From: a virus
Length of the DNA stretch: 64,000 nucleotides
Virus record (IMG/VR): IMGVR_UViG_3300025141_008848
Coordinates: 64,463 to 128,462 of that record
Reading direction: 5' to 3' (one strand)
Shown here: positions 3,613 through 26,466 of the stretch, piece after piece
Layout: each line of letters begins with the position of its first letter
Numbering within the stretch: the first letter of the stretch is position 1
The notes under the pieces: model-generated
Told to the model about the DNA's origin: nothing
The model's database searches: none
The model's input: the letters and a program-made list of their open reading frames with translations, nothing else
Translations under genes and position numbers: made by a program

Positions 3613-3624
3613 TATAAAAAAGAA

Positions 3625-4092: not shown

Positions 4093-4094
4093 TT

Positions 4095-9715: not shown

Positions 9716-11526
9716 TGAGTAACGAAAAAAATATAAGAATAGTAAGAGGAGAATCTAGATTTGCTGGGTCATCCAATGTAGAAATGGTTGTGCACCCTTT
9801 CCTAGAATCTACTACGAAAGAGTTAACACAAGGAGACAGAAACCTAGTTTTAGATTTAAGAGACCAATTCGATTTTGAACGGGAGTATTGCACAAATTAT
9901 AGGCTCCATGGTAAAATAGATATTTTATATAATAATATTGTTACAGGAGAAACAAATGAACAAGATTTTAAAACATCCATGTATTTTTTACCTGACTGGA
10001 CAGGGTGTCCACAAGTAGGGGGGGTACCACCAGGAAGTTGTGTTGGATTAACCCCAGCTTCTACGTTCTCATTTATGCCAGAAAAAAGATTTGGTATTAA
10101 TGCTAGTTTAAATGGTTGGGAACCATTATTAGCATATCAGGATAATTGGGTACAATATATTTCTTATATTCACGATGCGGATAGTGGACAAACAATGGAG
10201 TACTATATAGACTATGGAACCTCATCAGGACTGAGTTTCATTGCAGGAGACGGAATCCCATTCCAACCCACAACTAATACCATAGACGGGAAAGAAGTTT
10301 TACAATTAATTACACCAGTACCACATGGTATACTACCTGGGGAATATGTTGAGTTACAATCTACAGCTTTAGTATTTGGGGGTGGAGCAACATTAATGGT
10401 TGATGTTCCCATAACTTCTATATTCAACCCTGTTATAATGGGCACAAGTACACCCGCACCTCCACAAAACACATTTAAAGTAGATTCGTTAGGTAATAAT
10501 TTAGCAAACTCGGAAAATTATATCATAAATGTTCAAACCAACGGGCTAGACGTAGCATCTATACCAGCTAATGGTCCAGTAGGGACCTTAAAAAGAATAA
10601 TAAATATAGATAACCCTAATGAAACAAGGTCAGAATATTATACACAGATTCACAAATTAATAACTAACCCTAACGATTATACTTTTGATAGAACTGGATT
10701 TGAATTGGGAATATACGCTAAAAAAGGTAGAGTATATAGAGCAAAGAGAACACCAGATAATATAGAAAAAACTATAATAAAAGAACAATACGAATCTTAT
10801 TTATGGAACTCAAACCAAAATATAAACATTGATAATTATTATGATAATTTAAACCGCCCTTTAACTGATGTGTATTTAACCATTTTAACCACAAATAGAA
10901 ATTTAATTTGGGACTGGAATCCAGGTGGGGTGTCTAGTCCAGCTGGTTTTGGTTGGGGTTGGAATTTTAAGAAAAATGGGACAGTTGACCCATTTGTAGA
11001 TAATACACTTAATCCCATAAATTTAACACAAAACGGTACTTTGGGTGTTACTCCATTACCAGTTAGTGGAAGTACTTTTAGAGGTGCATTTGCGGAATAC
11101 AACCCATTTGAATTAAAAGAAAGAGTAATCTCTAATATAGGTCATTCTCTAAAGTTTAATAGGGACACATTATATATGTCAGGAGGAACACCATATGATT
11201 TTGTGCCCACCATTTACAAATACCAACCACACCATAAAATATCTTTAAAAAAATTCTCTAATTATATAAGTTATAATGATAGTTTATTTACATCACCCCA
11301 GTATGCTGTTTATTCTTCATCAGAGGAAACATTTAGGTGGAGAGAAATTTTACCTATTGAATTTTATGAAGATGGTACAAACGGTGTTAGTTATCCCTAT
11401 CTAAATGATGCACATTATCCGTACCTAAATCTAGAATTTACAATAGAGGCTGTAGGACCCGCATTAATACCATATAGTTCTGGTAGCATAAACATATTAT
11501 CTGAATACACTGATGGCTGTCAATAG
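9715..11526 (+). CDS. Putative virion structural protein
   Basis: 603-aa ORF coupled (TAATG) to the previous gene; beta-rich composition. Confidence 0.65.
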   Translation: MSNEKNIRIVRGESRFAGSSNVEMVVHPFLESTTKELTQGDRNLVLDLRDQFDFEREYCTNYRLHGKIDILYNNIVTGETNEQDFKTSMYFLPDWTGCPQVGGVPPGSCVGLTPASTFSFMPEKRFGINASLNGWEPLLAYQDNWVQYISYIHDADSGQTMEYYIDYGTSSGLSFIAGDGIPFQPTTNTIDGKEVLQLITPVPHGILPGEYVELQSTALVFGGGATLMVDVPITSIFNPVIMGTSTPAPPQNTFKVDSLGNNLANSENYIINVQTNGLDVASIPANGPVGTLKRIINIDNPNETRSEYYTQIHKLITNPNDYTFDRTGFELGIYAKKGRVYRAKRTPDNIEKTIIKEQYESYLWNSNQNINIDNYYDNLNRPLTDVYLTILTTNRNLIWDWNPGGVSSPAGFGWGWNFKKNGTVDPFVDNTLNPINLTQNGTLGVTPLPVSGSTFRGAFAEYNPFELKERVISNIGHSLKFNRDTLYMSGGTPYDFVPTIYKYQPHHKISLKKFSNYISYNDSLFTSPQYAVYSSSEETFRWREILPIEFYEDGTNGVSYPYLNDAHYPYLNLEFTIEAVGPALIPYSSGSINILSEYTDGCQ

Positions 11527-12481
11527 AATACAAATAAAAGCTTCTTTAAGTGATAAATCTGTCACTATACCTATAGGTCAAACTTTTGAAGAAATAGGCC
11601 AAGAAGAATTAATCAAAACTTGGGAAGAAGTAGAATTACAAGATAATATAAATGTTATACAAGATTATGAAACTACAAGATATGCATATAAAAATAATGC
11701 AGCTCCAGTGGGCTCAGGAGGTAGTAATACAATATCGTATAAATTTCATTTTTGGGATGCTGCAAATCAATGGTATACTGGCACAGGTGGAAACCCCCAT
11801 ACATTTAATGTTGTTGGGTACCTAAACAAAGATTTAGCAAAACCAAAGAAGGCATTTACTAAAAGCTTTTTTAAATTTGATTTTTACGACTCACCTAAAA
11901 AAGAAGAACAAAAAATAATGTTTACCAATATAATGCCATTAAATAATTGTATAAAAGTAACAACAGAAGTTGACGAACTAGAAGACCCGATAGAGTACTA
12001 CTCACAAATCGCAAATGACATTATTCCACCTACCTATGGGGTATACGTACCAACAGCGATATTAAGTCCATTAAAAGGTAAAAATGAGAATTTCTATATA
12101 CAATGGTTAAAAGATAGAGAATTGACACCCATTGATACTTTTTATATGTCTTGTAAATTCTTTAATGCAAAAACTGGTAAGGTAACGAATATGATAAATG
12201 ACAACCCAACACCAAGTCAAATTAATAATGGGTTAGTTCTTAATAATTTAGATTGGTTTTATTATAAAGTAAAACTTTTCATTGGACCATCCAATACTTC
12301 CACAATTATACCAAAATATAGGTATGTGGTGACTAAGTTCAATGAAGTCGCGATGCTCACCAATACTGGTGGGGTTGCGGGGACAGGACTTCCAGGTGGG
12401 ACACCTGCAGACGCTGTACCAAACACACCACAAGTACCAAATGCGGTACCAATAAAATTTTATGAATATGTAAACCCTTAA
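11513..12481 (+). CDS. Putative virion structural protein
   Basis: 322-aa ORF overlapping the previous gene; SFFKFDFYDS and FYMSCKFFNAKTG blocks. Confidence 0.65.
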   Translation: MAVNRIQIKASLSDKSVTIPIGQTFEEIGQEELIKTWEEVELQDNINVIQDYETTRYAYKNNAAPVGSGGSNTISYKFHFWDAANQWYTGTGGNPHTFNVVGYLNKDLAKPKKAFTKSFFKFDFYDSPKKEEQKIMFTNIMPLNNCIKVTTEVDELEDPIEYYSQIANDIIPPTYGVYVPTAILSPLKGKNENFYIQWLKDRELTPIDTFYMSCKFFNAKTGKVTNMINDNPTPSQINNGLVLNNLDWFYYKVKLFIGPSNTSTIIPKYRYVVTKFNEVAMLTNTGGVAGTGLPGGTPADAVPNTPQVPNAVPIKFYEYVNP

Positions 12482-12484: not shown

Positions 12485-15400
12485 ATGGAAGTATATAAAT
12501 ACCGAATAAAAAGAACCAACCCAAGTATATATTGGACAGTGCCCTGTACAGGAGGGACAGATTTTTGGCCTATAAACTTGAGTACTAATTGTTCTGGAAT
12601 AACCATGTTTAATTCTACCTTTAGTCAAGTTAGGGATGCATTAGAGGGGGATATGAATAATTTCCCACAAGAACTAACAGGGTGCTCTATAGCTAATCCA
12701 TGTGTGATTTTAAATGACACAGTAGTGTTACCAATGTTCCCTTCCCCAGACCCATTTTGTATAGATTCCTCATCTCACCCATATATTTTATTTACGGGGC
12801 TAAATCTAATCCAAATGGGGGTCCAAACATTTACGGGTGAAAGTTATAATGATATGATAAGTGTTTTTGACTTAACCAACTCAACACTATCACAACCACT
12901 AAACACTCAAACATCGGCTAATCTAATGCCGAATTCTAATTCTTGTTTTTGTCAAAACCCTTTAGGTACAAACTTAAACCAAATACCTATTCTATTAGAC
13001 CAAGATTTTAATGATATTGGTCACTACGATATTTGGGATGGGAATATTGGACAAAAAGATATTTTTTCTAATTTTGTTGTTACAGCGACTACGACTGCGG
13101 GAAATAAAATAAAAATATTTAACTCTACAGATTTTGGTTATTATAAAACATTTCAGGATTCACCATATACTATAAATTGGGGTGATTGTAATTGTAATTG
13201 TCCTGTCCCCCCATGTGTTAATTCATTTGGTGACCCTTGTTGTGAAACTTTACAATTTCCTAATTTGACAAATCCGGTAGACCATACTTATGGTGGGGTT
13301 GGTTCTCGAAAAATTACCATAACCCATGAAAGTCCATGGGGACCTACTTCGGTGTCACAAATGATTACTGTCCCCTTCATGAATTATAACGCATTATTAG
13401 CGACAGGAAATATACCTTCTTTTGTGTCCCCAGTTATTGGACCTAATGGTCCAGTTGGAACTAATTCTTATTTTGGAGCTTACCCATCTACCCCATTAGA
13501 TTCCGGTACGGATATAATGCAATATAGTGGAATGTCACCTATCTTTGCTGGGGGAAATAATAATGACTGTTTTGATGTCACAGGAAATACCGAAAGTTTA
13601 TTAGGAGCATTCCAAAACTATACAACATCAAGTACTGCGGGCTTACCACCAGGATACCAACAAGGTATCACAGTACCTCTTATGGGGCAGGTTTTAAATC
13701 CAATCACTAATACATTAGTACAAGGAGTTTCTGGTAAAATAACACAAGTAAATGCACAATATACGGCATATACAATTAGTATTGGAACCAACACACCAAT
13801 AACCTTTTATGATTTTAGTAATGGTGTTACTCTCTATGAAGCTGTAAGTTGCGGGTTAGACGCGTTTGCGTTTGCAGCATTTGATTGTGTTAAATGTGAA
13901 CTAGGGGATTGTACATATTGTGAAACAAAAGATGAATATATTGATAGGATTACATTTTTACCAGAATCCATAACGTTTAATGCCCAACATGGGGAGTGGT
14001 TACCTACTACTAATTATGTTGTTGGGGATATTGTTTTTGATAGTACTTGGGGGGAATGTTGTTGTTATATGGCAGTAAAAGATATAACACAAAGCGCTAC
14101 TACTCTTTCCCCATGGGCAGGAGTAAAACCAACAGATACATTCCAAGGTGTGTGGTGGTATAATGGACAACCAACTGAACATATTTGGGAAGCGTGTACG
14201 CCAGAATGTGAAAGTTGTCCTGATTATACCGCAATACCTTGTTATGACCCAACAAACTGGTTAAACGCATATCCTACATTTGGTCCTCCAGGACCTGCAG
14301 GGGTTTATAGTAATGGTAACAATTATACTGCAGGAACATTTACGGTTAGTCAATTCGGTAATTGTTATAGAGCATTACAAACAGGAACACTACCACCACC
14401 AACAGGACTAACTAATAACGCATATTGGGATTACATAGGGTGTTCTAGTTGGATATGCCCACCAGTATCCGCTTTGACAGCTGGAACTGTAGCGTGTGAA
14501 CTGGTTCCTGGAACTGGGTCTACCAGTACTGGACCATGTACAACTATAGGTTATACCTCATACAATGATTGTTTTGACGATTTTTTAAATGGTGAGTGTT
14601 GTGAAGATAGGTATATATGTACTGACCAGTATTCATGTCAAGGGTGTACAGGGATAACTTCAGCTCATCCATTATATAATGACCCAAGTGGTTTAGACCC
14701 CTTACAAGGTCCAGTTTTTGACTCTGAGCTAGATTGTAATGCGTGGTGTAACCCACCAGCATTTTCGTGTACTACTCAGATAGCGTCATCTAATAATTGT
14801 TGTGTTTCACTTTCATGTGCTGAGGATAACTTAAATGGAACCCCAGGATATTATAGTAGTGTGGTATTACCCGTTATTGCTGCCGCTGGTACAAACCCAG
14901 CACCTTTCTCAAATATGATTGATTACATAGCGTCTAATTATGCTTTATGGTTCGTAAGCCCTCTTACAACACCTAACCCATACGACATTAACGATTGTAA
15001 TTTAGGTGTGGTAGGGATTGCTACTGCATGTTGTGATTATACAATATGGGTTTATAATTGTGAAGATGGGTGTATTCCCGCATTTGCTGGTGCAGGGTGG
15101 CCAACACCAGGTGATTGTTGGGCTGCTAATCCACAATGGGCGGGTTATGGGACAACCCCATGTGGTTGGATATGTGACCCTGTTTGTGAACCCTGTGTCG
15201 AGGTATACCAACTTGGTGTGGGATACCCCTACACCCCACAAGGATTACTTGATTGTGAAATGAATTGTTCTTGTGTTACTGACTGTTACATATGTGACTG
15301 TACCGCAACAACAACAGGGGTAAATATAAATTGTGATTTATACCACGACCCTATTACAGGTCTAGCCGGTTGTCCCCATTGGCCACCAAATGAAGGTATC

Positions 15401-18400
15401 CCAGTAAACCCAGGAGACCCATTAACCTACTTATACCAAACTAATTGTCTATCCGCGTGTACTTGTGAAGGTGGTATTGATTGCTTTATATCCTCTATTG
15501 ATGGAACACAGATGGGTGGATGTAGTTCATACCCAAGTTTGTGGCATATGGCACAACAAAATGCAACATGGAGTTTAGGGTCACCAACAGACGCTGCGGG
15601 TAACCCTACGGGGTATACCACTGTAGAAGAATGTTGTTTGGCCACCGAGTGTTGTTGGGCTGTATGTGAAGAAGACCCAGCTGTTTATGACCCTGGTTAT
15701 TTTGGTATTACCCCTTCAGTTAATCCAGCGTTACAAGGTGGTGGTGGTGGTACTTACCCATGTTGGTGGTATTCACAGTCAGTACCAGATGTGTATAGTG
15801 ATTTCGGGGGTGGACAACCTTCTAATTGTTGTAGTCCCTTATATATTAATAATGCAGGAGCTAATACGGGATTAGCTGGTTGTATTCAAGACCATCCAAA
15901 TCACCCATATTGTGATATGATAGATTGTATAAATTCATTATGTCCACAACCCGCCCCTTCTAATGAAATGATGTGTTGTGTCCCACCAGAAAACTCATGT
16001 ATATGTGCATGTGATACTTGGATAGCACAAAATGGTAGTATATTAGTGCCTAGTTGGGAAGGACCTTGGAACGTAGGAATTTATTTAGAAGGAGATACTG
16101 TAAGTTACGGTGATGGTAATACACCAGACTGTTGTTGGATATGTACATGTCCATATGACCCATTATCACAAGTATTTGGGAGTGGTGTGTTTGATTGTAG
16201 TAGTTCACCACCAGATGATGGACCATACAGTAATGGTCAACCCAACTGTTGGCAAACTTGTGAAAGGTTACCAGCTACGTTCCCTTCTCCACCATCAAAT
16301 ATAGTAGGTGACCCATGTGGACCTTGTAGTGGTCATGTTCCACCTGTAACGTATTCTTGTAGTACGGCAGGTTGTTTAGCTTCTACTTGTGTTTTTAATC
16401 CAGGTGGGATGAACCCGTCTATATGGGCAACACAAATGAATTGTTATGATAATCCTATGTGTGACACACCAGCATATCCAGGATATGACCAGTGTAGAGC
16501 AGATTGTTATTGTGCAGACCCAAATCCACTTGCTGAAGTTACAAGTTGTACCGTATTACAAGATTATTTAAATGATATATACTCCCCAGGGGCTCTGGGA
16601 GGTGTTAATGGCTGGATTGCAGGTACCGGATGGTACTCAACTTGGCCAATGACTTATCCACCAGTACAACCAGGACTTATATTTAATACTAGTGGTTCAT
16701 TTTGGTGGCAATATTCATCGTTCGATGATTGTGTGTTGGGGGTAAATGCTGGTGTAGATTGTTGTGACACCTCAGGATTTACATACGCTTGTGATGATAC
16801 ATGTAATTGCCCAACGGTAAATGGAAATCCATGTGTTGGTGGTACAGGATGTTACGTAGTAACGAGTGGTCCTCCAGGACCTTTCACATCAATGGGTCAA
16901 TGTCAAGCCTGGTGCACATGGGAATGTGACCCAACAGGACCACAAATATGTATATTTAATGCATTATCGATAGCAGCTACTACATATCCATCGGCATTAG
17001 CATGTAGCGTCGCTAATACTAATTGTGAATGTGTTAATGGTACTGTAGAGTACTGGTGTGATTGGGCAGGTGCAGACGCAGGATATTATAACACATTGGG
17101 AGCAGTCCCTTGTGTAGACAGTGTATATATGTCCAGCCAAGTTCCAGCATATCAAGCTATGGCGATAGGACAAGGAGCTACAGGACCTGCAGACCCGGCA
17201 AATAATTATCATGACGCGGTAGTCTTAGGGAATAATCCTACGGGACAAGGATTCCCAACAATACAACAATGTCAAGAAAAGTGTAGATTCTGTTGTGATT
17301 GTGCACCTCCAGGTTCAGGTATTTGTGATTTATGTGGAGACCCCGCTGTCACAATATGTAGTTGGGGTGACCAATTCTGTAGTGCAGGTACTGCCTGTCA
17401 ATATGGAAGTAGTTACCTATCACCTTATGACTGCCAACAAAATACAACTCCATATCCTTGTGCAGCACCGATTACTGAATATTGTTGTCATGCAGTAGAT
17501 GGGTGTCTATCATATATGGGGGCGTATGTAGCGGGGACCAACCCAGTTACAAGTGATGGTGTGGGTTGTGTAAGTTTCCATACCATAGCAGGATGTGATG
17601 GGGAATGTAATTTTGTATGTGGGGATTGTACACCAACCGGAGGACAATGTGATTGTACTTTTGTAAATACATTAACACCTAATTGTCTTGCACCTTATCC
17701 ATTTACTACGATGGCAGACTGTCAATTCTATCTTAGTACAGCTGTCAACCTTTTATATGATGCTGGGTCTTGTTGTAGATGTTATGATTGTTTTTTAAAT
17801 AGTCCTATAACATATTCCGCATATGATGTGGGAAGTAGTACATGGATAACAATGAGTACCCCTATACCTACGTTTACCACTAGTGCACTAGCATGGGTAG
17901 CAGGTACCCAATATAATACGGGAGATGTTGTTAGTGAACTTTTTGATGGTGATGACTGTTGTTATGTTTGTGTTTGGGGAGCTAATGAAACAGGAGGTAT
18001 AACAACTAACTGGACATGGAATCCTTCTTTCTATTATACAGCGTATGTTAATGATGTTGGGTTAGGTAACCCAGTTTGGCCAGGTGGTGGTACTGGAAGT
18101 TTGGCGTGGATACCTTGTGACGCAGGATGTGTAAATGTCCAAATAATTACATATAATTGTATTCCAGGAGCAATCTTCGATAGTTGTGAGTATGATACAA
18201 ATGGTAATCTAATGAATTTAATAGTACCAACCACAGTATTTTTATCTCAAAATGATGTAGTAAGGAGATTAGCGGACCCACTGGGGACACCAAATCTTCA
18301 ATCAACTAATATATTTACAATTAAATTTCCATATGGTGGATGGCCAGTAGGTTATCCAGCAAACCCTTGTCTATATAATGGATTTCCCCTAGCTATTGCG

Positions 18401-21400
18401 GGAGGTTTTCTCAGCATAGATAGTGATATGGCAATGCAATACGGCATCCCACAAGATTATGTATCCTGGTCCCAACTTATTGCAGCTCTGGTAAGTGTAG
18501 GTGTTGTGGATTACAGTGGTACCCTGGTAAGTCTAACTAGTACTTTTGACGAAGTATGTGAAGCAATATGGCTAGCAATTGGGTCGATGCCAGGTTCACT
18601 ACCAAAGTGTATTACCATTACGATAGACCCATGTGAGTGTACTCAAAGTACATGTGATTGTGTAGCAGTTAATGGACCAGGAGGACAATTCACTAATCTT
18701 GGAGATTGTCAATCACTTCTAAATAACGTACCTTGTTGTGGTACCTGGTATTGTCCAGGACAAACTAACTGTACCTGCGTATTCCAACCTAATATATTAA
18801 CTGGGTTTGCCACCCAAATAGATTGTTATAACGCTGTTAATTGTTGTGAAATACAAGAACCAGAATATGCCTGTATAGTAACAGCTCCATCTCCATCATT
18901 CGGAATACCTGATGTGTGTGACTGCATACAAACACCAGGAGGACCTTATACCGGACCAAACGCACTACTTGATTGTCAAACTGACCCAAATACTTGTTGT
19001 TCAGGTACTACAATGCCAGACTACTGGAAATGTGAATTACAACCTGGGGGTAACTGTCTGTGTGTACTAGACCCCTCACCAACGATTAATTCTTTTACTA
19101 GTCTATTTGATTGTCAATCAACACCAGTCTCCAATTGTTGTTGGACAGGAGTAAGCTACACACATTATTGGGAGTGTATAGATTTCGGAGGTACCATAGG
19201 GTGTGAGTGTGTACAAACATCAACAGGTGCATGGCCTACATCTGGAGACTGTGAAGCTCAACAAAGTCTATGTTGTTACAGTGGGGTTACAAAATGGGAT
19301 TGTAAAGACCCGGGGAATGGTAATTGTACGTGCGTACAATCAATATTTGGATTCTATACCAGTTTATATAATTGTGAACATAGTATACCTGCAGTAGTCC
19401 CACACCCAAACTGTTGTGAAAAAATTTATGGAAATTGTAAAACATGTGATGGAGCACAGCTAATCCATACAACAGGTAAACATTACGGTCCCCTAGGTGG
19501 GCTAGGTATAGCTTCTACAAATGGTGTAACCCTAGCACCAATTGTGGATAGGGGTTTATGGGTTACAGGAACGAATAACTACGTATACTTAGATGTGGTA
19601 GAAGACCCATTGGATGGTTGTTGTTACGCACTTATTCAAACGACAAATCATAGTGGGGTTAATATGTTAGGGCCAGGAAGCCCACTTCTAACCTACTCAC
19701 CAAGTATTGTGTATAATAACCACATTAACGGTTATTTTGCTGATGGTTCATATAATTCAGCTCCAGGTCCATGTGCAACAATACAACAAGTTTTTTGTCC
19801 ATGGTGGCCTTGTGACCCTAGTTGTGTAGGAACAGTAAAAGGGTATGATTGTGATAATTGTCCCGGAACGTGTGTTTGTAACCCTAATAATACCGCAGGT
19901 GCTACGTTCCAAGGTCCAGGAGCATTAGCAGCGTGTCAAGCAGTTTGTATACAAGGGTGTGATGATTGTGCAGTTAGTTTAGCTGGTTATCTCACCGGAC
20001 CAGTACAGTATGAGGGTGTATGGAGTGCTACTTTTAATCCTCCATGGCATGTGTATGATATTAATGATTGTGTGGTAGACCCTGCAGACAACTGTTGTTA
20101 TTGTTGTGTTGAAGACCCTACCGTTCTCAATCCGTGTACACCAAACACACCACCACAACTATGTAAAGTGGCTGGGGAGGTATGGCATCCATTCCCAATA
20201 TGTAAGTGTATGAAGCCAAATATACAACAATCCAAATCGAAAGCTAATCCGTGCATACCACAACCTTGTGCTCCTAATGAAACTTGGTTCGGAAACCCAA
20301 TATGTGATTGTGTCCCGAACGGTCCTGGTGGTTCAGGTCCTGGTGGTTCAGGAAATATTAACGGATGTGCCGCCAAACATCAACCATCACTCAATCTTGG
20401 TGTGAGTGTTGGTGGTGTTGGGTCTATACCAGTAACATGGGCAGATTGTAAACAAGATATAAATGGAGACCCATGTGGTCCTGGTGGCTCGAATCCAATT
20501 TGCAAGGACTGTGGTCCTGGTGCGATTACCTTCGATTACTATGACCACAATACCAGTACCTGGCAGACGGCTAATATCACTGCCACACCCACCCTCCCAA
20601 TTCCAGTATGGACACCAGGCACTTACACACCTACCGGTCAACAGGGTAACGTTGTTATGCATAACGGGTGTTGTTTTGTTGTTTGTAACACACACTCAAC
20701 ACCGACAACATATCTCAACCTATCTCCGACAGATGATTATATGGAATACTTATGGTGTATGTCACAACACCCTGGAGGAAATCCACTTGATTGGCCAACA
20801 CTAATGTCTGCCTTTGGTCAAAATCCTATGGCACAAGTTGTATATTTCCCATGTGATAAAGATTGTGTACCAAGTGTCCCTATAAGAAACAAGAGATATG
20901 ATTGTAAACGACAAGCAACGTTGGGGAACCCAAATAATATGGGATGCGTACCAAACCCAAATGGAGTTTATGTAGATTTACCAACATGTCAAATTAACTG
21001 TAACCAACAGGAAGAATGTAAACAATGTTGTCAAAATACTAATTGGGAACCAGGATTATCTGATGCAATGTCAATGACGAGCTCGTATACACTCCTACAA
21101 TCAAACGCAAATCCGTGTGATTGTGAATTTTGGTTAGGTGTTGGTTGGGTTCCAGTACCACTTTCAAAATGTAAGGTACGAGATGGTTGTGTACAAGTTA
21201 AGGTATGTGACTCACCTTATGTGTGGGCAGGACAACCGATATGTGATTGTGTTCTCCCAAACGATATCCCACACGAGGACTGGGCCCATGATGATGGTTG
21301 TGTACAAGATAAGGAATGTGAGAATGGTTGGACCTGGTCATGGAAATTATGTGACTGTGTTATTGAAACCAGAGAAAGATGTATGGAAAGAGAATGTGCA

Positions 21401-21460
21401 GCAGGAAAATTTTGGGATAAGGAAGTATGTAATTGTGTACCACATAAAAAAATACCCTAA
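12485..21460 (+). CDS. Giant (2991 aa) cysteine-rich repeat protein, putative tail-associated adhesin
   Basis: Uninterrupted 9 kb ORF in the tail module; PKD-like YTINWGD...HTY domain near the N-terminus; seven CBM5/12-like W..G..Y..GD.V motifs; several Cys repeat classes. Confidence 0.75.
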   Translation: MEVYKYRIKRTNPSIYWTVPCTGGTDFWPINLSTNCSGITMFNSTFSQVRDALEGDMNNFPQELTGCSIANPCVILNDTVVLPMFPSPDPFCIDSSSHPYILFTGLNLIQMGVQTFTGESYNDMISVFDLTNSTLSQPLNTQTSANLMPNSNSCFCQNPLGTNLNQIPILLDQDFNDIGHYDIWDGNIGQKDIFSNFVVTATTTAGNKIKIFNSTDFGYYKTFQDSPYTINWGDCNCNCPVPPCVNSFGDPCCETLQFPNLTNPVDHTYGGVGSRKITITHESPWGPTSVSQMITVPFMNYNALLATGNIPSFVSPVIGPNGPVGTNSYFGAYPSTPLDSGTDIMQYSGMSPIFAGGNNNDCFDVTGNTESLLGAFQNYTTSSTAGLPPGYQQGITVPLMGQVLNPITNTLVQGVSGKITQVNAQYTAYTISIGTNTPITFYDFSNGVTLYEAVSCGLDAFAFAAFDCVKCELGDCTYCETKDEYIDRITFLPESITFNAQHGEWLPTTNYVVGDIVFDSTWGECCCYMAVKDITQSATTLSPWAGVKPTDTFQGVWWYNGQPTEHIWEACTPECESCPDYTAIPCYDPTNWLNAYPTFGPPGPAGVYSNGNNYTAGTFTVSQFGNCYRALQTGTLPPPTGLTNNAYWDYIGCSSWICPPVSALTAGTVACELVPGTGSTSTGPCTTIGYTSYNDCFDDFLNGECCEDRYICTDQYSCQGCTGITSAHPLYNDPSGLDPLQGPVFDSELDCNAWCNPPAFSCTTQIASSNNCCVSLSCAEDNLNGTPGYYSSVVLPVIAAAGTNPAPFSNMIDYIASNYALWFVSPLTTPNPYDINDCNLGVVGIATACCDYTIWVYNCEDGCIPAFAGAGWPTPGDCWAANPQWAGYGTTPCGWICDPVCEPCVEVYQLGVGYPYTPQGLLDCEMNCSCVTDCYICDCTATTTGVNINCDLYHDPITGLAGCPHWPPNEGIPVNPGDPLTYLYQTNCLSACTCEGGIDCFISSIDGTQMGGCSSYPSLWHMAQQNATWSLGSPTDAAGNPTGYTTVEECCLATECCWAVCEEDPAVYDPGYFGITPSVNPALQGGGGGTYPCWWYSQSVPDVYSDFGGGQPSNCCSPLYINNAGANTGLAGCIQDHPNHPYCDMIDCINSLCPQPAPSNEMMCCVPPENSCICACDTWIAQNGSILVPSWEGPWNVGIYLEGDTVSYGDGNTPDCCWICTCPYDPLSQVFGSGVFDCSSSPPDDGPYSNGQPNCWQTCERLPATFPSPPSNIVGDPCGPCSGHVPPVTYSCSTAGCLASTCVFNPGGMNPSIWATQMNCYDNPMCDTPAYPGYDQCRADCYCADPNPLAEVTSCTVLQDYLNDIYSPGALGGVNGWIAGTGWYSTWPMTYPPVQPGLIFNTSGSFWWQYSSFDDCVLGVNAGVDCCDTSGFTYACDDTCNCPTVNGNPCVGGTGCYVVTSGPPGPFTSMGQCQAWCTWECDPTGPQICIFNALSIAATTYPSALACSVANTNCECVNGTVEYWCDWAGADAGYYNTLGAVPCVDSVYMSSQVPAYQAMAIGQGATGPADPANNYHDAVVLGNNPTGQGFPTIQQCQEKCRFCCDCAPPGSGICDLCGDPAVTICSWGDQFCSAGTACQYGSSYLSPYDCQQNTTPYPCAAPITEYCCHAVDGCLSYMGAYVAGTNPVTSDGVGCVSFHTIAGCDGECNFVCGDCTPTGGQCDCTFVNTLTPNCLAPYPFTTMADCQFYLSTAVNLLYDAGSCCRCYDCFLNSPITYSAYDVGSSTWITMSTPIPTFTTSALAWVAGTQYNTGDVVSELFDGDDCCYVCVWGANETGGITTNWTWNPSFYYTAYVNDVGLGNPVWPGGGTGSLAWIPCDAGCVNVQIITYNCIPGAIFDSCEYDTNGNLMNLIVPTTVFLSQNDVVRRLADPLGTPNLQSTNIFTIKFPYGGWPVGYPANPCLYNGFPLAIAGGFLSIDSDMAMQYGIPQDYVSWSQLIAALVSVGVVDYSGTLVSLTSTFDEVCEAIWLAIGSMPGSLPKCITITIDPCECTQSTCDCVAVNGPGGQFTNLGDCQSLLNNVPCCGTWYCPGQTNCTCVFQPNILTGFATQIDCYNAVNCCEIQEPEYACIVTAPSPSFGIPDVCDCIQTPGGPYTGPNALLDCQTDPNTCCSGTTMPDYWKCELQPGGNCLCVLDPSPTINSFTSLFDCQSTPVSNCCWTGVSYTHYWECIDFGGTIGCECVQTSTGAWPTSGDCEAQQSLCCYSGVTKWDCKDPGNGNCTCVQSIFGFYTSLYNCEHSIPAVVPHPNCCEKIYGNCKTCDGAQLIHTTGKHYGPLGGLGIASTNGVTLAPIVDRGLWVTGTNNYVYLDVVEDPLDGCCYALIQTTNHSGVNMLGPGSPLLTYSPSIVYNNHINGYFADGSYNSAPGPCATIQQVFCPWWPCDPSCVGTVKGYDCDNCPGTCVCNPNNTAGATFQGPGALAACQAVCIQGCDDCAVSLAGYLTGPVQYEGVWSATFNPPWHVYDINDCVVDPADNCCYCCVEDPTVLNPCTPNTPPQLCKVAGEVWHPFPICKCMKPNIQQSKSKANPCIPQPCAPNETWFGNPICDCVPNGPGGSGPGGSGNINGCAAKHQPSLNLGVSVGGVGSIPVTWADCKQDINGDPCGPGGSNPICKDCGPGAITFDYYDHNTSTWQTANITATPTLPIPVWTPGTYTPTGQQGNVVMHNGCCFVVCNTHSTPTTYLNLSPTDDYMEYLWCMSQHPGGNPLDWPTLMSAFGQNPMAQVVYFPCDKDCVPSVPIRNKRYDCKRQATLGNPNNMGCVPNPNGVYVDLPTCQINCNQQEECKQCCQNTNWEPGLSDAMSMTSSYTLLQSNANPCDCEFWLGVGWVPVPLSKCKVRDGCVQVKVCDSPYVWAGQPICDCVLPNDIPHEDWAHDDGCVQDKECENGWTWSWKLCDCVIETRERCMERECAAGKFWDKEVCNCVPHKKIP
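18653..19417 (+). repeat. Six tandem ~40-48 aa protein repeats, CxC-x(8-14)-[FYW]-x(4-8)-C-x(5-13)-CC-x(n)-[WY]xC
   Basis: CDCVAV..FTNLGDCQ..CCGTWYC; CTCVFQ..FATQIDCY..CC; CDCIQT..YTG..LDCQ..CC..YWKC; CLCVLD..FTSLFDCQ..CC..YWEC; CECVQT..WPTSGDCE..CC..KWDC; CTCVQS..YTSLYNCE..CC. Confidence 0.85.
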
Positions 21461-21468
21461 AAAAGATA

Positions 21469-22110
21469 ATGGAAAAAATAAGTACACCACTAGAAAAAGA
21501 ATGGGGTAAGGTTTTTAAATTTGAAGTAGGCCCCATTAAAGTAACTAAAAAACTTTATAGGCCTACCATTAAAAGATTTGAAAAGTGGTTAAATATAATA
21601 GAAAAAGAAGAGTATTTTAATAAATTTGATTTCCTACTAACAGGTTCTTTCCCTAACTATATTAATAATAATCTACCTTGGCAAACTTGGGATATAGATA
21701 TTATTTTAATTGATAACGGAAATAATAGTTTAGAATTAATTAGAGATACACTGGTACATCTATCTACAATAGCATTAGAACAATGTGATTTTTATATAGA
21801 TGTTTATTACCAGAATAAAAAAAATGTGGAATTAAACAAAGTTTGTTATAGAGGAGGTATAAAAAATTGTAAACCTTACAGTTTTGAAAAAGTAGGATTA
21901 TCTTACGCACCTCATGTTAAAAGAGACGGTGTTATAGTATCTAATTGGAATATTGATGAAGAGGTTATAAATGGATTATGGGTTACCAGACTACAATTTC
22001 CTTCCGCAAAACAAATCCAAAGAATCAATACTGGATTTAAATATGATGACGAGATTTACTTAAGTGAGTACAAAAAACATTTTCCACTAATAGAAACAGT
22101 AGATAAATAA
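21469..22110 (+). CDS. Putative nucleotidyltransferase (Pol-beta superfamily)
   Basis: hGS motif (LLTGSF) followed by DxD (WDIDII) and a third acidic residue (YIDVYY). Confidence 0.6.
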   Translation: MEKISTPLEKEWGKVFKFEVGPIKVTKKLYRPTIKRFEKWLNIIEKEEYFNKFDFLLTGSFPNYINNNLPWQTWDIDIILIDNGNNSLELIRDTLVHLSTIALEQCDFYIDVYYQNKKNVELNKVCYRGGIKNCKPYSFEKVGLSYAPHVKRDGVIVSNWNIDEEVINGLWVTRLQFPSAKQIQRINTGFKYDDEIYLSEYKKHFPLIETVDK

Positions 22111-22119
22111 GTGTTATGA

Positions 22120-22126
22120 TATTTAT
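22120..22126 (+). promoter_or_regulatory. Putative late-promoter motif TATTTAT
   Basis: Intergenic, 13 nt before the ATG at 22140. Confidence 0.55.
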
Positions 22127-22139
22127 TATAAAATAAGTA

Positions 22140-22361
22140 ATGGGACTGAGTGAAGTAAAAGTAACGGGATGTATATTACCTTTAACTAAATTAGAGGTTT
22201 TAATGAATATGGTACAAAGACCAGAAGTAAGGTCAAATATATTTATTGAAAGAGGTAAAGTGACAGTTTTTGAGAAAGCACAAAGGTTAGGACAAATAAA
22301 CAGTATAGGTGAATTAGAATTACACGGATACGGATACTATAAAGTAGAAAAACAACCATAA
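22140..22361 (+). CDS. Small structural protein, possibly the detached C-terminus of a conserved tail gene
   Basis: 73 aa, PEVRSNIFIERGK...RLGQINSIGELELHGYGYY; own upstream TATTTAT motif. Confidence 0.65.
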   Translation: MGLSEVKVTGCILPLTKLEVLMNMVQRPEVRSNIFIERGKVTVFEKAQRLGQINSIGELELHGYGYYKVEKQP

Positions 22362-22364
22362 ATT

Positions 22365-23288
22365 ATGGCATTAGGAGCATACGGAATTAAGAGACCAGCA
22401 GATGTAAAAGTAGAAGACGTACAAATACTTGTTCATCAACAAGCTAGTAGAGACTCATCAGCAGCACCTTCAGTCTATGAGGTACCAGCAACCACAGTAT
22501 TAACCCCAATACTCCACGCTTCACCTACTCAAACTGGAGGACCCGCAGGTGAAATTTTGGGGGGACTTTACGATTTACAATTACCCTCAGCAGTATTCGC
22601 TAGTAGAGGGATTTATACGGTATATATTAGACCAGTAGAAATCAGAACAACAATATTGGATTGTGGGATTTTATCGTCACTACCAAATGTAAAAGGACTT
22701 GTATTTGACCTTAACTCGATACCACTACAGTATAGAAATAGGTTTTCCCCTATGGATTTAGTGGGGTATAGAATAGAATATCTAGATTCAGACAGTGGTG
22801 CAAAAATTAATAACTTTTTTAGGATAGTTACCTCTAATTTTTATTGTGCGACAGTAGAACAAAATAACACCAACCCAAATCAAACATCACCTAGATATGT
22901 TTATACAAACGCAAAAACTAATTTAGTATATTGTACACTAACACCAACCAGTGCACCATCTAATAACCCTAACGCAATACCATTTATAGGACAACCAGGA
23001 CAATCTGTAATAATCACAAACACTTATTTTAACCCTATAGTACTTGATATAGAAATGGTAGACCATGATTTCGACACTCTAGCTATTGCACTTTATGGTA
23101 ATCAAGCAAAATCTATAGATAGTGGAATTTACACCCTTTATGATTTAAGTGGTGCGGATAACATATACATGCAATATGATTTATATGAGGTTAGAGACCA
23201 ATTTAACGGACAATTATTCGAAATTAAACAAAATAGAGGAAACAATATTGATTTTAGTCAAATGTTTGGTACAATAACTAACTTTTAA
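22365..23288 (+). CDS. Putative virion structural protein
   Basis: 307-aa ORF in tail module (YGIKRPADV, LGGLYDLQLP blocks). Confidence 0.65.
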   Translation: MALGAYGIKRPADVKVEDVQILVHQQASRDSSAAPSVYEVPATTVLTPILHASPTQTGGPAGEILGGLYDLQLPSAVFASRGIYTVYIRPVEIRTTILDCGILSSLPNVKGLVFDLNSIPLQYRNRFSPMDLVGYRIEYLDSDSGAKINNFFRIVTSNFYCATVEQNNTNPNQTSPRYVYTNAKTNLVYCTLTPTSAPSNNPNAIPFIGQPGQSVIITNTYFNPIVLDIEMVDHDFDTLAIALYGNQAKSIDSGIYTLYDLSGADNIYMQYDLYEVRDQFNGQLFEIKQNRGNNIDFSQMFGTITNF

Positions 23289-23293: not shown

Positions 23294-26200
23294 ATGGCTA
23301 GTAATAGATTTAGATACCCACCGGCCCCTAATCACGGAGGGGATACATTTAGTGACTATCTTGTAGGTAACCAATTTATGGGTAGCCAACAAATGACACT
23401 GGGTAATTTCTATAGTATGCCACCCTACGGTAAACCAAACTCACCAGAATATAATGTAGGTACATTCTCCACCCCAATAACCCTAGAATCACTAAATATA
23501 GAAAATTTAGCTCTAGCACAACAATTATCTAGTAATAATCTTGAGGTGTTTGTCAATAACAATATAAGTGATATTTCTAGTTTTGTTTTATATGGGTCAT
23601 TAAAGAAAAGATTATCTATTGCGGTCCAAAATATAGTTAATTTTTTTCCAGGAGCTTTATTTGTTGATGGGATAGATACTAATTACTTACCAGGTAATAC
23701 TACAGCATATGATATATTATATAACTTAGCGACAGAAGAAACGACATTTAAAACTAATGTTAATATCTTATCTAACCCATTTAGTATAGAATTTACTACC
23801 AACGGAAATCAGATGAATGAAAATATTAGTCCAGAACAAATATTGAATAATTTTGAAATGTTTGGGATTTCTGCAAATACTTTGATAAATATAGCAGATG
23901 GAACCACGTCCTCATTAAGAAACCTAACTAAAGAATTTAAAAAATACTCATTAAGTTTTAGTGGGAAAGTGGGTGAAAAAGAATATAGGATAACCAACCT
24001 AGAACCACAAAACACAAATAATAATTATCTAGTTTTTACTGTTAAAGGGAACCCGTTTAATGTATCAACACTAGCTGGTGCATCCCCAACACTAACAACC
24101 AATACATTTTATATTAAACCCACCCAACAACAAACAGAAGAAGAATTTAAAAAATTCCAGAGTATAGAAGCATTTTTGGTTAATAGAGGAGTTTCACCCA
24201 TATACACGGCTACATTTAATACCATTAAAGAAACCACTGAAGGTGTTAAATATTATGATAAAATAAAAAAGACATGGCCACTAGAGGATAATGTCAATAT
24301 AGATACCACAACTGAAAATTATACTAACTACCTAATATCATTATCTGAGTTAGGTGAAGAGTTAGACCAAGAAAAAACAAATTTAATTTCTAGATTTTTA
24401 ACTTCACCTATATTAAAAGAATTTGATGGTACTAACCAAAAAATAGAAAAAACATTACAGATATATGGGAGAAGTTTTGATGACATCAAAACTTTTGTAG
24501 ATGGAATATCTTATATGACTAATGTGAGTTATGATGGTGAAAATAATATACCTAATGAACTCATCAAGAATTTTGCACAAACTTTAGGATGGTCTACACC
24601 AAGTACACTAAACAACACTACCTTCTTAGACAGTGTCTTAGGTGTAAACACACCACAGTATTCCGGAACAAGTGTATCCAAAACACCTGCAGAACTGGAC
24701 ATAGAATTATATAGAAGAATATTACTCAATACAGGATACCTATTTAAATCTAAAGGAACAAGAAAATCTATAGAATTTTTATTAGGACTTTTAGGTGCAC
24801 CTGAAGCACTAGTTGAGTTTAATGAGTATGTTGTATTAGCAGATGCACCAATTAAATTAGACTCAGGGGTTAAATTTGTTTGGGCCTCTCAACCAAACGC
24901 AGTTACAGAACCTTCCTACGAAAAGGTAGAAAGTAAATTTACAAACCAATGGCAAAAAATATCCGGAGGGTCATATACCACTACTACTATAAATTATAGC
25001 ATACCATTTGGGCAATACTACTATTCTACCGGAACAACACAAAACCCATTTACACTCGTAGATTATCCTATTGATAGTCAGGGATATCCAACAACTCCTC
25101 GAATCACTAATAACTATTTTTTCCAGAGAGGAGCAGGATGGTTTGAAATGACGGATAAACATAAGTCGGAATTAGTAATTAACATTAGTGCATCCACCCT
25201 TACAGGATGTACCCCAAACATAGTAAATAAATTTAGTGAATTTACATGGGGTGGTTTTTGGACACTCGGACAGTATTCTAATTCAGTAAAATGTCCTTAT
25301 TTAGATAGGTTTAGAAGGTTTCCACATATGTCATTTGGTTTTGGATTAACCAGAATGATAGACGATAAAAAATCTTGGGTTCTAAAGGAAGGTACCCAGT
25401 ATAGGGATTACTCCTTTAATAATAGAGACGCGTACTACCAAACACAAAATGAAAAGTTAGTTCTAAATGTTAAAAATGTTGAATTAGGATTAAATATTGG
25501 GCAAGGACTAACATATGATGTGTGGAAACAATCAGCCCAATCAGACTGTTTTTTTAGTGGGGGAACATTACCTTATCCATATCCTACCACAGGAGGAAGG
25601 TGGGACTCCACAAACCCAAAAATTAACGCAAAAACTACCGACTTTAAAACGTTTAAAGACCATTTTTGGAAAGTGTTTATTGATGCCAAAAATCGAATGA
25701 CCATAAATGATGGTAAAACAGGGGGATATCCTACCTTACAAAAAATATATCTAGACTATCTCTATAAAAGTTGTGGGGAAAATAATAAGTACACATATAA
25801 TAAAATGATTGAGTATGCACAATCGATGGGAGACTATTGGATAAAGATTATCGAACAAATGGTTCCAGCCACTACATTATGGACAAGTGGAGTTAAAATA
25901 CAAAACTCTGCTTTTCATAGAGATAAGTTTGTATACCAATGTTTTAATGTTACAGGGACAAGTCTATCTACAGTATTAAGTTCTACACTTTTAGTATCCA
26001 GTACAGGATTTACTGGGTTTCCCGCACCACAATTTATGAGTGCCCCACCATCATTAAGAATAGCAGCACCCCCACAGTCAGGTACAACGTTCTATAATAA
26101 TTTATTAAGTGGGGCTCTTGTAATTCCACGTTCCACTTACGCAAATTCTTATAATATAGATAACCAAGGAAAGACATTTGGTGGTGCCTTAACGAGTAAA

Positions 26201-26461
26201 GAAACCAATAAACTCGCTAATAAGTTTCATAGTAATAAAAAAGAATATATAGATAAATCCGTATTTACAAAAAAAGGTAGTACTAGTAATTTATTATGTA
26301 TACATGGTATGAAGGAGCTACGTGGTGGAGATACAACATGGTTAGAAAGTTATCGATTAACCCCTAGACCAAGTACACAAAGAGGCGGAATTGAGGGTGG
26401 TACCACTATAAATACTAGTAGTCAAGTGAACCACTCTGGGAGAATGGGTGGTAGTTATTAA
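23294..26461 (+). CDS. Baseplate wedge protein, T4 gp7/P2 gpI-like domain
   Basis: NIPNELIKNFAQTLGW...ELYRRILLN..YLFKSKGTRKSIEFLL, the KGT motif typical of gp7/gpI wedge proteins. Confidence 0.7.
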   Translation: MASNRFRYPPAPNHGGDTFSDYLVGNQFMGSQQMTLGNFYSMPPYGKPNSPEYNVGTFSTPITLESLNIENLALAQQLSSNNLEVFVNNNISDISSFVLYGSLKKRLSIAVQNIVNFFPGALFVDGIDTNYLPGNTTAYDILYNLATEETTFKTNVNILSNPFSIEFTTNGNQMNENISPEQILNNFEMFGISANTLINIADGTTSSLRNLTKEFKKYSLSFSGKVGEKEYRITNLEPQNTNNNYLVFTVKGNPFNVSTLAGASPTLTTNTFYIKPTQQQTEEEFKKFQSIEAFLVNRGVSPIYTATFNTIKETTEGVKYYDKIKKTWPLEDNVNIDTTTENYTNYLISLSELGEELDQEKTNLISRFLTSPILKEFDGTNQKIEKTLQIYGRSFDDIKTFVDGISYMTNVSYDGENNIPNELIKNFAQTLGWSTPSTLNNTTFLDSVLGVNTPQYSGTSVSKTPAELDIELYRRILLNTGYLFKSKGTRKSIEFLLGLLGAPEALVEFNEYVVLADAPIKLDSGVKFVWASQPNAVTEPSYEKVESKFTNQWQKISGGSYTTTTINYSIPFGQYYYSTGTTQNPFTLVDYPIDSQGYPTTPRITNNYFFQRGAGWFEMTDKHKSELVINISASTLTGCTPNIVNKFSEFTWGGFWTLGQYSNSVKCPYLDRFRRFPHMSFGFGLTRMIDDKKSWVLKEGTQYRDYSFNNRDAYYQTQNEKLVLNVKNVELGLNIGQGLTYDVWKQSAQSDCFFSGGTLPYPYPTTGGRWDSTNPKINAKTTDFKTFKDHFWKVFIDAKNRMTINDGKTGGYPTLQKIYLDYLYKSCGENNKYTYNKMIEYAQSMGDYWIKIIEQMVPATTLWTSGVKIQNSAFHRDKFVYQCFNVTGTSLSTVLSSTLLVSSTGFTGFPAPQFMSAPPSLRIAAPPQSGTTFYNNLLSGALVIPRSTYANSYNIDNQGKTFGGALTSKETNKLANKFHSNKKEYIDKSVFTKKGSTSNLLCIHGMKELRGGDTTWLESYRLTPRPSTQRGGIEGGTTINTSSQVNHSGRMGGSY

Positions 26462-26466
26462 AAGTT

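Follow-up and report, generated by a model that had tools for sequence, protein, structure and literature searches.

The window analysed here, a 64,000-nt stretch that forms the second half of the IMG/VR record IMGVR_UViG_3300025141_008848 (128,462 bases), carries a giant open reading frame (ORF) of 2,991 residues and, downstream of it, an ORF of only 73 residues, which in all likelihood are the two halves of one ancestral phage structural gene. The CheckV completeness estimate for the record is 34%, which for 128 kb of sequence points to a full genome considerably larger than 200 kb. The window starts with replication genes (a DnaB-like helicase and ribonucleotide reductase), followed by a T4-type baseplate block, and every large ORF from 3625 to about 47600 lies on the + strand. 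The slot occupied by the two ORFs contains the following features:

12485–21460, + strand: ORF-A, 2,991 aa (variable N-terminus, N-domain and Cys-rich insert), the probable first half of the split gene.
12974–13852, + strand: N-domain, aa 164–456 of ORF-A, homologous to the N-domain of the compact family described below; a PKD-like β-sandwich is expected.
13859–21457, + strand: Cys-rich insert, aa 459–2991 of ORF-A, with 240 Cys and 26 CC pairs.
21469–22110, + strand: 213-aa nucleotidyltransferase-like (NTase-like) gene, a subclade-specific insertion between the halves, 8 nt after the stop codon of ORF-A.
22120–22133, + strand: AT-rich motif TATTTATWATAAAA, a candidate start signal of the 73-aa gene.
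22140–22361, + strand: ORF-B, 73 aa, consisting of the C-terminal domain (CTD) alone, the probable second half of the split gene.
22182–22355, + strand: CTD, aa 15–72 of ORF-B, matching the CTD of the compact proteins.

The three ORFs, the 8-nt spacing, the peptides quoted and the motif before the 73-aa ORF had been described in an earlier examination made without database searches (the sequence-only reading), and all are present as described. The abrupt switch of the giant protein to Cys-rich sequence, placed there at about 13860, agrees with the position of the peptide EAVSCGL (aa 452–458, nt 13838–13858), YTAYTI beginning at aa 426; the Cys content is 3.3% before the switch (15 of 458 residues) versus 9.5% after it (240 of 2,533). 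The insert, which is probably disulfide-bonded and extracellular, holds six tandem 6-Cys mini-domains (aa 2050–2311) and four W..Y..GD.V..CC motifs. Neither Pfam nor PHROGs returned a family for the giant protein, submitted whole or in six pieces (the pieces to Pfam at E ≤ 5). A carbohydrate-binding module (CBM) of the CBM5/12 type was considered for the W..Y..GD.V..CC motifs and rejected: the resemblance is at the level of a regular expression only, at 4 sites, and five pieces of the insert of about 500 aa do not match Pfam CBM_5_12 at E ≤ 5.

The proposal of the sequence-only reading that the N-terminal part of the giant protein and the 73-aa peptide normally form a single protein is borne out by database searches with the two parts. 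A profile built from ten 73-aa orthologues and run against 1.84 billion representative proteins (E ≤ 0.001) retrieved 310 proteins, the best 150 of which were analysed. The CTD match ends at most 10 residues from the C-terminus in 148 of these 150, the exceptions being P0010, whose tail resembles the product of a frameshift, and P0136, on which a second hidden Markov model (HMM) is silent. Searched independently by BLASTP against the same best 150, the first 470 residues of the giant protein matched 37 over its residues ~160–460, so that the two parts, taken separately, match the N- and C-terminal parts of the same proteins. An HMM of the N-domain, derived from 25 compact proteins, raises the number carrying both domains to 60 of 150; the start of the domain is present in 24 of the 60, and the others look like fragments. 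The gap between N-domain and CTD in these 60 proteins is usually 8 residues and in most others 6–47, with single-chain outliers of 136 (P0083), 190 (P0080) and 741 residues (P0039, a protein of 1,134 aa); the gaps of P0116 and P0145, whose N-domain matches are partial, are not meaningful. Conversely, the N-domain HMM has one match in the six-frame translation of the window, at giant aa 165–456 (profile positions 49–287 of 291, E = 1.4e-39), and an HMM of the CTD of compact proteins likewise has one, at residues 16–73 of the 73-aa protein (profile positions 1–58, E = 2.3e-26).

The compact proteins read ...YTAYTI..Y.DY..G.T.F...SSG.T at the junction, followed by about 8 residues and by ITK.E.L..., the beginning of a CTD of about 60 aa that lies at the extreme C-terminus and has the pattern F[IV]ERGK...RLG[EQ]...GYG[YF][YF]. 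The giant protein reads ...YTAYTISIGTNTPITFYDFSNGVTLYEAVSCGL at the same point and is Cys-rich thereafter, whereas the 73-aa ORF reads MGLSEVKVTGCILP-LTKLEVLMN.... Judged from these alignments, the junction is residue-exact. In the window, 8,332 nt separate the end of the N-domain match from the beginning of the CTD match, which agrees in size with the ~8.3 kb that the sequence-only reading had supposed to be gained at the junction.

Gene order tells the same story as homology. An IMG/VR scan with the N-domain alignment gave at least 591 stretches, from which 80 loci were kept; these are the loci closest to one query and belong to one clade. In each of the 80, a single gene of about 390 codons encodes both domains, joined by a linker of 6–11 aa. 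The order of genes is the same in 12 of 12 compact loci, namely gp25-like, gp6-like, 1221, 603, 322, the ORF with N-domain and CTD, 307 and 1055 (the numbers being lengths in aa). Three features of the window anchor the comparison:

3625–5933, + strand: gp25-like (155 aa) and gp6-like baseplate wedge genes, which define the baseplate module.
11513–12481, + strand: 322-aa ORF, the upstream synteny anchor, with orthologues directly upstream of the slot in 12 + 8 + 7 loci.
22365–23288, + strand: 307-aa ORF, the downstream synteny anchor, strongly conserved across 27 loci.

The 322- and 307-aa flanks are shared by 12 of 12 compact loci, by 8 of 8 and 5 of 5 loci with two ORFs and by 2 of 2 loci with one ORF carrying an insert. 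In 27 of 27 loci the compact or split gene is immediately followed by an orthologue of the 307-aa protein, 55–67% identical (56–61% in the 12 compact loci), except that one ORF intervenes in locus L023. Since the flanks are shared in 12 of 12 cases, the compact gene is the positional orthologue of the giant/73-aa pair. The baseplate assignment is carried by the 612-aa ORF (4095–5933), which matches PHROG 219 and PHROG 6 'baseplate wedge subunit' with E = 1e-17; the 155-aa ORF is putatively gp25-like, by its size, its position and the T4 gene order. The 322-aa ORF matched nothing in Pfam except ASH, below threshold. As to the ~950 nt of L023 (11185–12148), they contain an extra ORF of 270–340 aa between the compact gene and the 307-aa orthologue, that is, an insertion just downstream of the slot.

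Between the compact gene and the arrangement found in the window lies a series of intermediates at the same slot. Among the best 150 CTD proteins, 90 do not contain the N-domain, 21 of them being at most 90 aa long and 69 longer, and loci were fetched for two such groups (P0021 and P0031) as well as for the P0039 group. In the P0021 group (L097–L103, L106 and L107 are split; 8 of 11 loci were checked gene by gene), the 322- and 307-aa orthologues enclose two ORFs separated by a break inside the insert: an ORF-A of 777–1,253 aa that starts with the N-domain and an ORF-B of 225–1,078 aa that ends with the CTD. The P0031 group (5 of 7 loci: L113–L115, L117 and L118) is likewise broken inside the insert and combines an ORF-A of 421–542 aa with an ORF-B of 829–963 aa, while in the P0039 group (L109 and L110; L111 is truncated) a single ORF of 1,139–1,156 aa at the same position is made of the N-domain, an insert of about 740 aa and the CTD. 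The inserted sequence, or cargo, is thus carried by the first half alone, by the second alone or by the two together, and the clade of the window represents the extreme, with the entire insert on ORF-A and ORF-B reduced to the bare CTD. No tblastn match at E ≤ 1e-4 was obtained between the window insert and 27 loci outside its clade; the inserts of different clades are therefore not detectably related. The idea of a display slot, put forward in the sequence-only reading, gains from the in-frame inserts of 136, 190 and 741 aa and from the two syntenic one-ORF loci of 1,139–1,156 aa. Fusion of the 73-aa homologues to other partners had been named there as an outcome that would speak against a single gene; the partners examined turned out to be second halves of the same gene, broken elsewhere at the same locus, so the single-gene reading stands.

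One locus thus occurs in compact, in-frame-insert and split states, every insert lies at the inter-domain linker, and both halves are under selection. The window departs from the canonical state of one polypeptide with a short linker, its two domains being in different ORFs and different frames 8,332 nt apart; its version is a split derivative and not a canonical member of the compact family. We consider it highly probable that a single ancestral gene survives here as two halves, the giant ORF and the 73-aa ORF.

The arrangement recurs in relatives. Scanning IMG/VR with giant aa 1–470 and with the 73-aa protein gave 16 loci; those sufficiently complete show a giant ORF of 2,858–2,966 aa followed by ORFs of 73–77, 304–307, ~1,060 and ~1,260–1,400 aa. 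The contigs of L001 and L003–L005 are also recorded as L002, L007, L008, L010, L011 and L016, and the clade of the window amounts to 9 distinct contigs (ORF-A, 2,858–2,991 aa; ORF-B, 73–77 aa). This layout of two or three ORFs recurs across independent metagenomic contigs, and the 73-aa ORF is under purifying selection, its ratio of nonsynonymous to synonymous substitution rates (dN/dS) being 0.05–0.27 against seven relatives, with dS between 0.47 and 1.19; taken together, the recurrence and the selection mean that the arrangement is not due to chance. The 73-aa protein is 68–97% identical in nine relatives, with 40 invariant columns.

The region preceding the 73-aa ORF is also conserved. The motif TATTTATTATAAAA at 22120–22133 lies 6 nt 5' of the ATG, and the 25 nt 5' of this codon are kept in 10 of 10 loci of the clade as GATATTTAT[T/A]ATAAAA.... 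Allowing at most one mismatch, TATTTATWATAAAA occurs 5 times in the window versus 1.28 expected, a number reached by 1 of 100 shuffled sequences. Its three exact copies, all on the + strand (3606–3619, 22120–22133 and 56725–56738), end 5–7 nt before the ATG codons at 3625, 22140 and 56746, the first of which opens the baseplate block. We regard TATTTATWATAAAA as a candidate for a shared start signal, acting in transcription or in translation; it differs from the consensus of the T4 late promoter. A looser copy with 2 mismatches, at 52590–52603, precedes position 52611.

Compared with the compact phages, the CTD of the window is 41–54% identical and the N-domain 26–35%, so that by sequence identity the CTD is the most conserved element of the system. 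The 73-aa ORF belongs to the structural machinery rather than being a stray small gene, and as the conserved CTD is always followed by the equally conserved 307-aa gene, a contact between the CTD and the 307-aa protein is a reasonable guess. A search of PDB sequences with the CTD profile (E ≤ 1) gave no match.

The conservation of the CTD could also be understood if the 73-aa protein were a detached assembly chaperone or oligomerisation nucleus that acts in trans and is possibly not in the virion. C-terminal foldon or intramolecular chaperone domains are found in T4 fibritin and in endosialidase, and a domain that is the most conserved part of its system and is found at the very C-terminal end of widely differing proteins (148 of 150) behaves as domains of this type do. 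However, the CTD of the compact proteins comes right after the N-domain, where there is no fibre to fold, the fibre of the window's clade is on another polypeptide than the CTD, and no protease or chaperone family matched the CTD. A role of this kind is unlikely, though the least unlikely of the alternatives considered. With respect to the split gene itself, we also looked at a possible covalent tie between its halves. A Cys located 3–4 residues before the [LI]TK of the CTD is kept in compact, two-ORF and giant forms (Cys11 of the 73-aa protein in the window, nt 22170–22172), and the Cys of an S-C-G-[LIM] sequence at the end of the N-domain is present in all 9 giant-clade loci shown (Cys456 in the window, nt 13847–13849), L103 having a Cys nearby. 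On the strength of these two positions, a disulfide might link the halves; a clade-specific disulfide staple is retained as a speculation only, the CTD-side Cys being conserved in all forms, the compact ones included, and the SCGL Cys being confined to the giant clade.

If the two ORFs descend from one gene, the history could in principle run either way. In the opposite direction, a fibre gene with the N-domain and a separate CTD gene would be ancestral, and the compact gene would be their fusion with loss of the intervening sequence. A tree of the 307-aa protein, obtained by a quick search and unrooted (8 duplicate or partial loci excluded; the rows L023 and L024, a non-orthologous ORF on a very long branch, ignored), gathers the giant + 73-aa loci in one clade (SH-aLRT, the Shimodaira–Hasegawa-like approximate likelihood-ratio test, 97) and 65 compact rows in another (100), the two-ORF loci forming a grade. 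Midpoint rooting makes this grade basal, and the split forms are diverse, 69 of the 150 representatives being longer than 90 aa without the N-domain; both observations would suit an ancestral pair of genes. A fusion would nevertheless require a deletion that left a linker of 6–11 aa in 80 of 80 loci, the single-chain inserts of 136, 190 and 741 aa at the same point read more easily as insertions, and cargo without detectable homology across clades (27 loci) is better explained by repeated gain than by one ancestral cargo common to all. We thus find the reverse polarity quite improbable. Insertion plus fission, rather than fusion plus deletion, is the direction suggested because the short linker is conserved, the inserts of 136–741 aa are in frame and those of different clades are unrelated.

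Neither insertion nor fission is recent. The giant protein is homologous over its full length in 8 relatives, with a bin-by-bin identity between 13% and 87% that drops from the N-terminus to the C-terminus: it goes from 0.87 down to 0.22 against L001 and from about 0.47 down to about 0.15 against L012–L015. The identity to L001, the closest relative, is 79% over aa 471–760, 52% over aa 2040–2320 and 28% over aa 2543–2991. There is no break of conservation at the junction, the bins 451–750 matching the N-terminal bins in this respect. The last 449 aa, which by local tblastn are still homologous to the relatives at 28–30% identity, had been considered as a tip exchanged for unrelated sequence, an idea dropped on account of that homology; a protein search with these 449 aa found nothing among proteins of 787–2,245 aa, a range outside which the giant homologues fall. 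The GC content at third codon positions (GC3) is 0.234 in the insert, 0.236 in the N part and 0.21–0.22 in the flanking genes, and the raised overall GC content of the insert (0.417) is due to its amino-acid composition. Insert and split are shared across the clade, and the insert has the same GC3 as its neighbours; both features are therefore old and not recent in this phage. Thus the size given in the sequence-only reading for the gain at the junction holds, but its placement as a gain made by this very phage does not: insert and split are common to 9 distinct contigs.

Other parts of the giant protein vary too. P0004–P0008, which are distant giant-type fragments, likewise run on into Cys-rich sequence. 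The first 163 residues of the giant protein (12485–12973) are expanded and contain Cys, versus ~50–70 residues in the compact proteins, and P0006–P0008 have different Cys-rich N-terminal inserts, which suggests that the N-terminal region is a second variable site.

The gene lodged between the halves has a history of its own. A gene of about 210 codons at this place is found only in the contigs of L001, L003, L004 and L005 and in the window, and across IMG/VR the NTase-like gene occurs in the same five contigs only, always in this slot. It is absent from 5 of the 10 clade contigs (L009 and L012–L015): in L012–L015 the small ORF starts 53–58 nt after the stop of the giant ORF, and L009 likewise lacks the gene if a frameshift near the end of its giant ORF is allowed for. 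The 213-aa protein has 19 homologues of similar length with 43–97% identity. In an alignment of 14 of these homologues (42–89% identity), G59, D75, D77, D107 and D111 are invariant and S60 nearly so (G-G in P0177); this G[SG]...DxD pattern is the signature of Pol-beta-type nucleotidyltransferases. Searches of Pfam (E ≤ 0.1) and of PHROGs (E ≤ 0.01) gave no match to the protein. Its AlphaFold2 (AF2) model is confident (predicted local distance difference test score, pLDDT, 82.5; predicted template modelling score, pTM, 0.82), and the structures ranked highest against it are mostly NTases, although the matches are weak: Foldseek ranks the class I CCA-adding enzyme 1r89 best (E = 0.027), followed by AAD(9), CdnD and MNT, and VIA-align gives 1ylq_B (Z 5.2; root-mean-square deviation, rmsd, 3.5; 91 residues aligned), 1no5_B (Z 5.1) and ANT(3'')(9) (Z 4.7), values to be read against the Z of 7–8 that unrelated models commonly reach. 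Like the minimal NTases of the Pol-beta type (MNT, HI0073-like, ANT), the protein has the invariant G[SG]...DxD and further acidic residues; unlike them, it has extra N- and C-terminal β elements, no HEPN partner is seen, and its structural scores are in the range of noise. 'NTase-like' is therefore the best label for it, not an established membership.

The sequence-only reading had treated the Cys-rich region and the NTase as one cassette, which fails on the distribution just given, the NTase-like gene being missing from half of the clade contigs, among them all the deeper branches, and confined to one subclade. A joint arrival of the Cys-rich region and the NTase-like gene as one mobile cargo, with the NTase acting on the giant protein, would agree with the presence of the gene nowhere else in IMG/VR and with its position 8 nt after the stop of the giant ORF without a motif of its own, a spacing from which co-transcription with the giant ORF is probable. 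Yet the five clade contigs lacking it have the full giant and 73-aa ORFs, and its GC content (0.274) and GC3 (0.169) differ from those of the cargo (0.417 and 0.234). A further DNA contig, from run X2 (4,386 nt, depth 27, covering 20800–22700 of the window), joins 21363 to 22105 and thereby seems to skip 741 nt including the NTase-like gene; this is a weak indication, the skip depending on a side of 29 letters with 88% likeness, and the contig probably comes from a co-occurring relative without the gene. A single mobile cargo is very unlikely, and the NTase-like gene is a later, subclade-specific insertion into the split gene.

Finally, it is scarcely credible that the split is an artefact of assembly or sequencing, or is bypassed by frameshifting, hopping or splicing: programmed frameshifts are known in phage structural genes and the giant ORF of L009 is interrupted near its 3' end in a frameshift-like manner, but the break comes with a conserved ATG and motif in 10 of 10 loci from independent samples, relatives without the intervening gene still show a stop, 53–58 nt and a new ATG, the break falls at many sites among the two-ORF relatives and always has a separate start codon, and the halves are kept apart in the window by a gene of 642 nt in a third frame. 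Three ORFs in three frames with such a gene in between make read-through, simple frameshifting and splicing unlikely, and Rfam recognised no family, introns included, at the gathering score over the whole window; an intein is likewise not indicated, the intervening ORF having no Pfam match. The break in L009 (3860–4100) has the appearance of a frameshift, either an assembly error or real: the giant ORF stops early and Cys-rich coding continues in another frame for about 160 nt.

What the conserved protein looks like was addressed through a compact homologue, P0055, for which an AF2 model was computed from 25 sequences. The overall pLDDT is 62.7; residues ~110–200 and 250–330 are confident, and the CTD lies at 33–50. 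Residues 102–194 match PKD domains, with 4l9d_A at Z 8.3 (rmsd 2.9, 80 residues aligned) and 6aem_A at a Foldseek TMt of 0.75 (0.75–0.77 over the PKD matches); note that this PKD-type fold is seen in the model of P0055 and is only expected for the window's own protein. A profile search of the PDB with the compact proteins returned PKD-containing chains only, at E = 0.002, and the ESM Atlas gave for P0055 only PKD leads, with scores (0.80–0.81) below the trustworthy range. The nearest entry in BFVD, A0A6J5L9U6, is a 'PKD domain-containing protein' of an uncultured Caudovirales phage that is 41% identical to P0055. At the level of Pfam (E ≤ 5), giant aa 1–470 match no family, PKD (PF00801 and PF18911) included. 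None of the T4 baseplate and fibre proteins, gp7–gp12 included, was matched by sequence or fold, P0055 having barely been probed outside residues 102–194. Going by gene order alone, the conserved protein would be a peripheral component of the baseplate.

Searches for known families and for cultured relatives were negative as well. With Pfam and PHROGs applied to the three ORFs and seven neighbours, the giant, 213-aa and 73-aa proteins had zero matches. Tblastn against INPHARED (50,697 records of cultured phages) found no match for giant aa 1–505, the 73-aa ORF or the 307-aa protein; hence no cultured relative can be named. GTDB genomes scanned with the CTD alignment contained no relative, and hence gave no hint of a host. 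The phage looks like a member of an uncultured jumbo T4-like lineage. Its compact-gene relatives are on contigs of 272–322 kb.

These elements can be assembled into a scheme. The ancestral gene would have encoded a protein of ~350–400 aa, comprising an N-domain that contains a PKD-like sandwich, a linker of 8 aa and a CTD of about 60 aa, in the baseplate-wedge block of an uncultured lineage of large T4-like myophages. The linker would have been a hot spot of insertion at which marine lineages took up Cys-rich modules, and the reading frame would later have broken within the insert or at its end, in the clade of the window at the very end. ORF-A would then provide the N-domain and a Cys-rich stalk of 2,533 aa whose tip evolves fast, and ORF-B the bare CTD, presumably translated from its own ATG behind the conserved AT-rich motif, the NTase-like gene having landed between the halves later, in one subclade. 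The two conserved domains would anchor in the tail structure and reunite although made separately, either by non-covalent complementation of a split protein or by docking of both halves on one neighbour. This mechanism of assembly is one that we consider nearly, but not quite, probable. The Cys-rich stalk would project outward from the conserved anchor, with its distal end evolving fastest, as receptor-binding tips do, and may serve in adhesion or host recognition. In a more general form, the linker would be a reusable 'split-and-display' site, where the free C-terminus of the N-domain and the free N-terminus of the CTD can each grow projections while the domains re-associate non-covalently in the virion; this we propose tentatively, leaning slightly against it.

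Several points weigh against this scheme or against parts of it. A pLDDT of 33–50 in the CTD hides the domain interface in the P0055 model. The collections searched contain neither virion proteomics nor a cultured relative. The cargo matches no known binding family, so that the adhesion role is argued from composition, position and the evolutionary gradient. As to the breadth of the compact family, the 80 loci, being of one clade, contribute only alongside the more diverse representatives. Polarity is not established by the 307-aa tree, which is unrooted and quick and in which the compact form is one clade and the split form a grade plus a clade. Lastly, three metatranscriptome libraries, each from a different study, yielded contigs over 22197–22535, i.e. 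the distal two thirds of the 73-aa ORF into the 307-aa gene, but these contigs could stem from contaminating DNA and are compatible with expression without proving transcription. Note that RNA and DNA library cover refers to Logan contigs and that stretches without RNA cover carry no meaning.

The scheme can be set beside known systems, starting with the compact family itself (e.g. A0A6J5L9U6). Its two domains have their homologues in the two ORFs of the window, with order and genomic position preserved, but the window's version differs from it by a 2,533-aa insert at the 8-aa linker, by being two genes and by a longer, Cys-containing N-terminus (aa 1–163). Siphophages of lactic acid bacteria have 'evolved' distal-tail and baseplate proteins that carry inserted carbohydrate-binding modules, and share with the window a conserved scaffold that accepts surface-binding modules at a permissive site; the window, by contrast, belongs to a T4-like myophage, its proteins are unrelated, the insert is about ten-fold larger, Cys-rich and without a Pfam CBM, and the scaffold is split. 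The multi-gene fibres of T4 (gp34–37 and gp10/11/12), together with the foldon of fibritin, a C-terminal trimerisation domain, resemble the window in that a long stalk leads from a conserved proximal anchor to a tip that evolves fast, and in that assembly needs a small C-terminal domain, whereas no match in sequence or fold was obtained, and the small domain of the window is homologous to the end of a protein that is compact and not a fibre, and is encoded apart from the stalk, on another polypeptide. Phage virion proteins also display Ig-like, PKD and FN3 domains, to which the PKD-type sandwich in the N-domain of the compact homologue is alike; here, however, the PKD-like unit belongs to the conserved core and not to the variable decoration.

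Binding modules inserted into conserved tail-tip or baseplate scaffolds and multi-gene fibres with fast tips are thus known from other phages. What is new is the uncharacterised family, the size of the insert and the breakage of a scaffold gene such that its last 60-residue domain is a separate gene. Literature searches at the level of listings and abstract openings, together with passages of PMC12619734, which deals with a large aquatic phage lineage, yielded no account of the split gene. The natural series of compact genes, in-frame inserts and genes split at varied points offers a stepwise route from a small structural protein to a fibre anchor of 3,000 residues. Moreover, a domain of ~60 aa, represented in at least 310 protein clusters, marks one end of the slot and should help to annotate giant 'hypothetical' proteins on marine and freshwater jumbo-phage contigs. 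If the halves do re-associate, the pair would be a ready-made split anchor, a testable scaffold for large cargo on contractile tails, and could be used to locate host-recognition genes in uncultured phages; if true, this would be a previously undescribed protein-fragment-complementation anchor, evolutionarily reusable, for phage adhesins of up to ~2,500 residues.

Two further observations concern the genes downstream of the 307-aa ORF. The final ~120 residues of the 1,258-aa ORF (30123–30240) combine an acidic, Gly/Pro-rich composition with short Cys motifs such as Y.SC..G.C..., loosely like the units of the giant insert; a strict regular expression matched neither protein. The 1,055- and 1,258-aa genes are two ORFs in the window (23294–30243), and the homologous regions lie inside one ORF of 2,726–3,026 aa in L109 (14356–22536), L110 (14305–22524), L113–L115, L117 and L118. 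The 1,055/1,258-aa pair is a second fusion or fission polymorphism of the same structural block.

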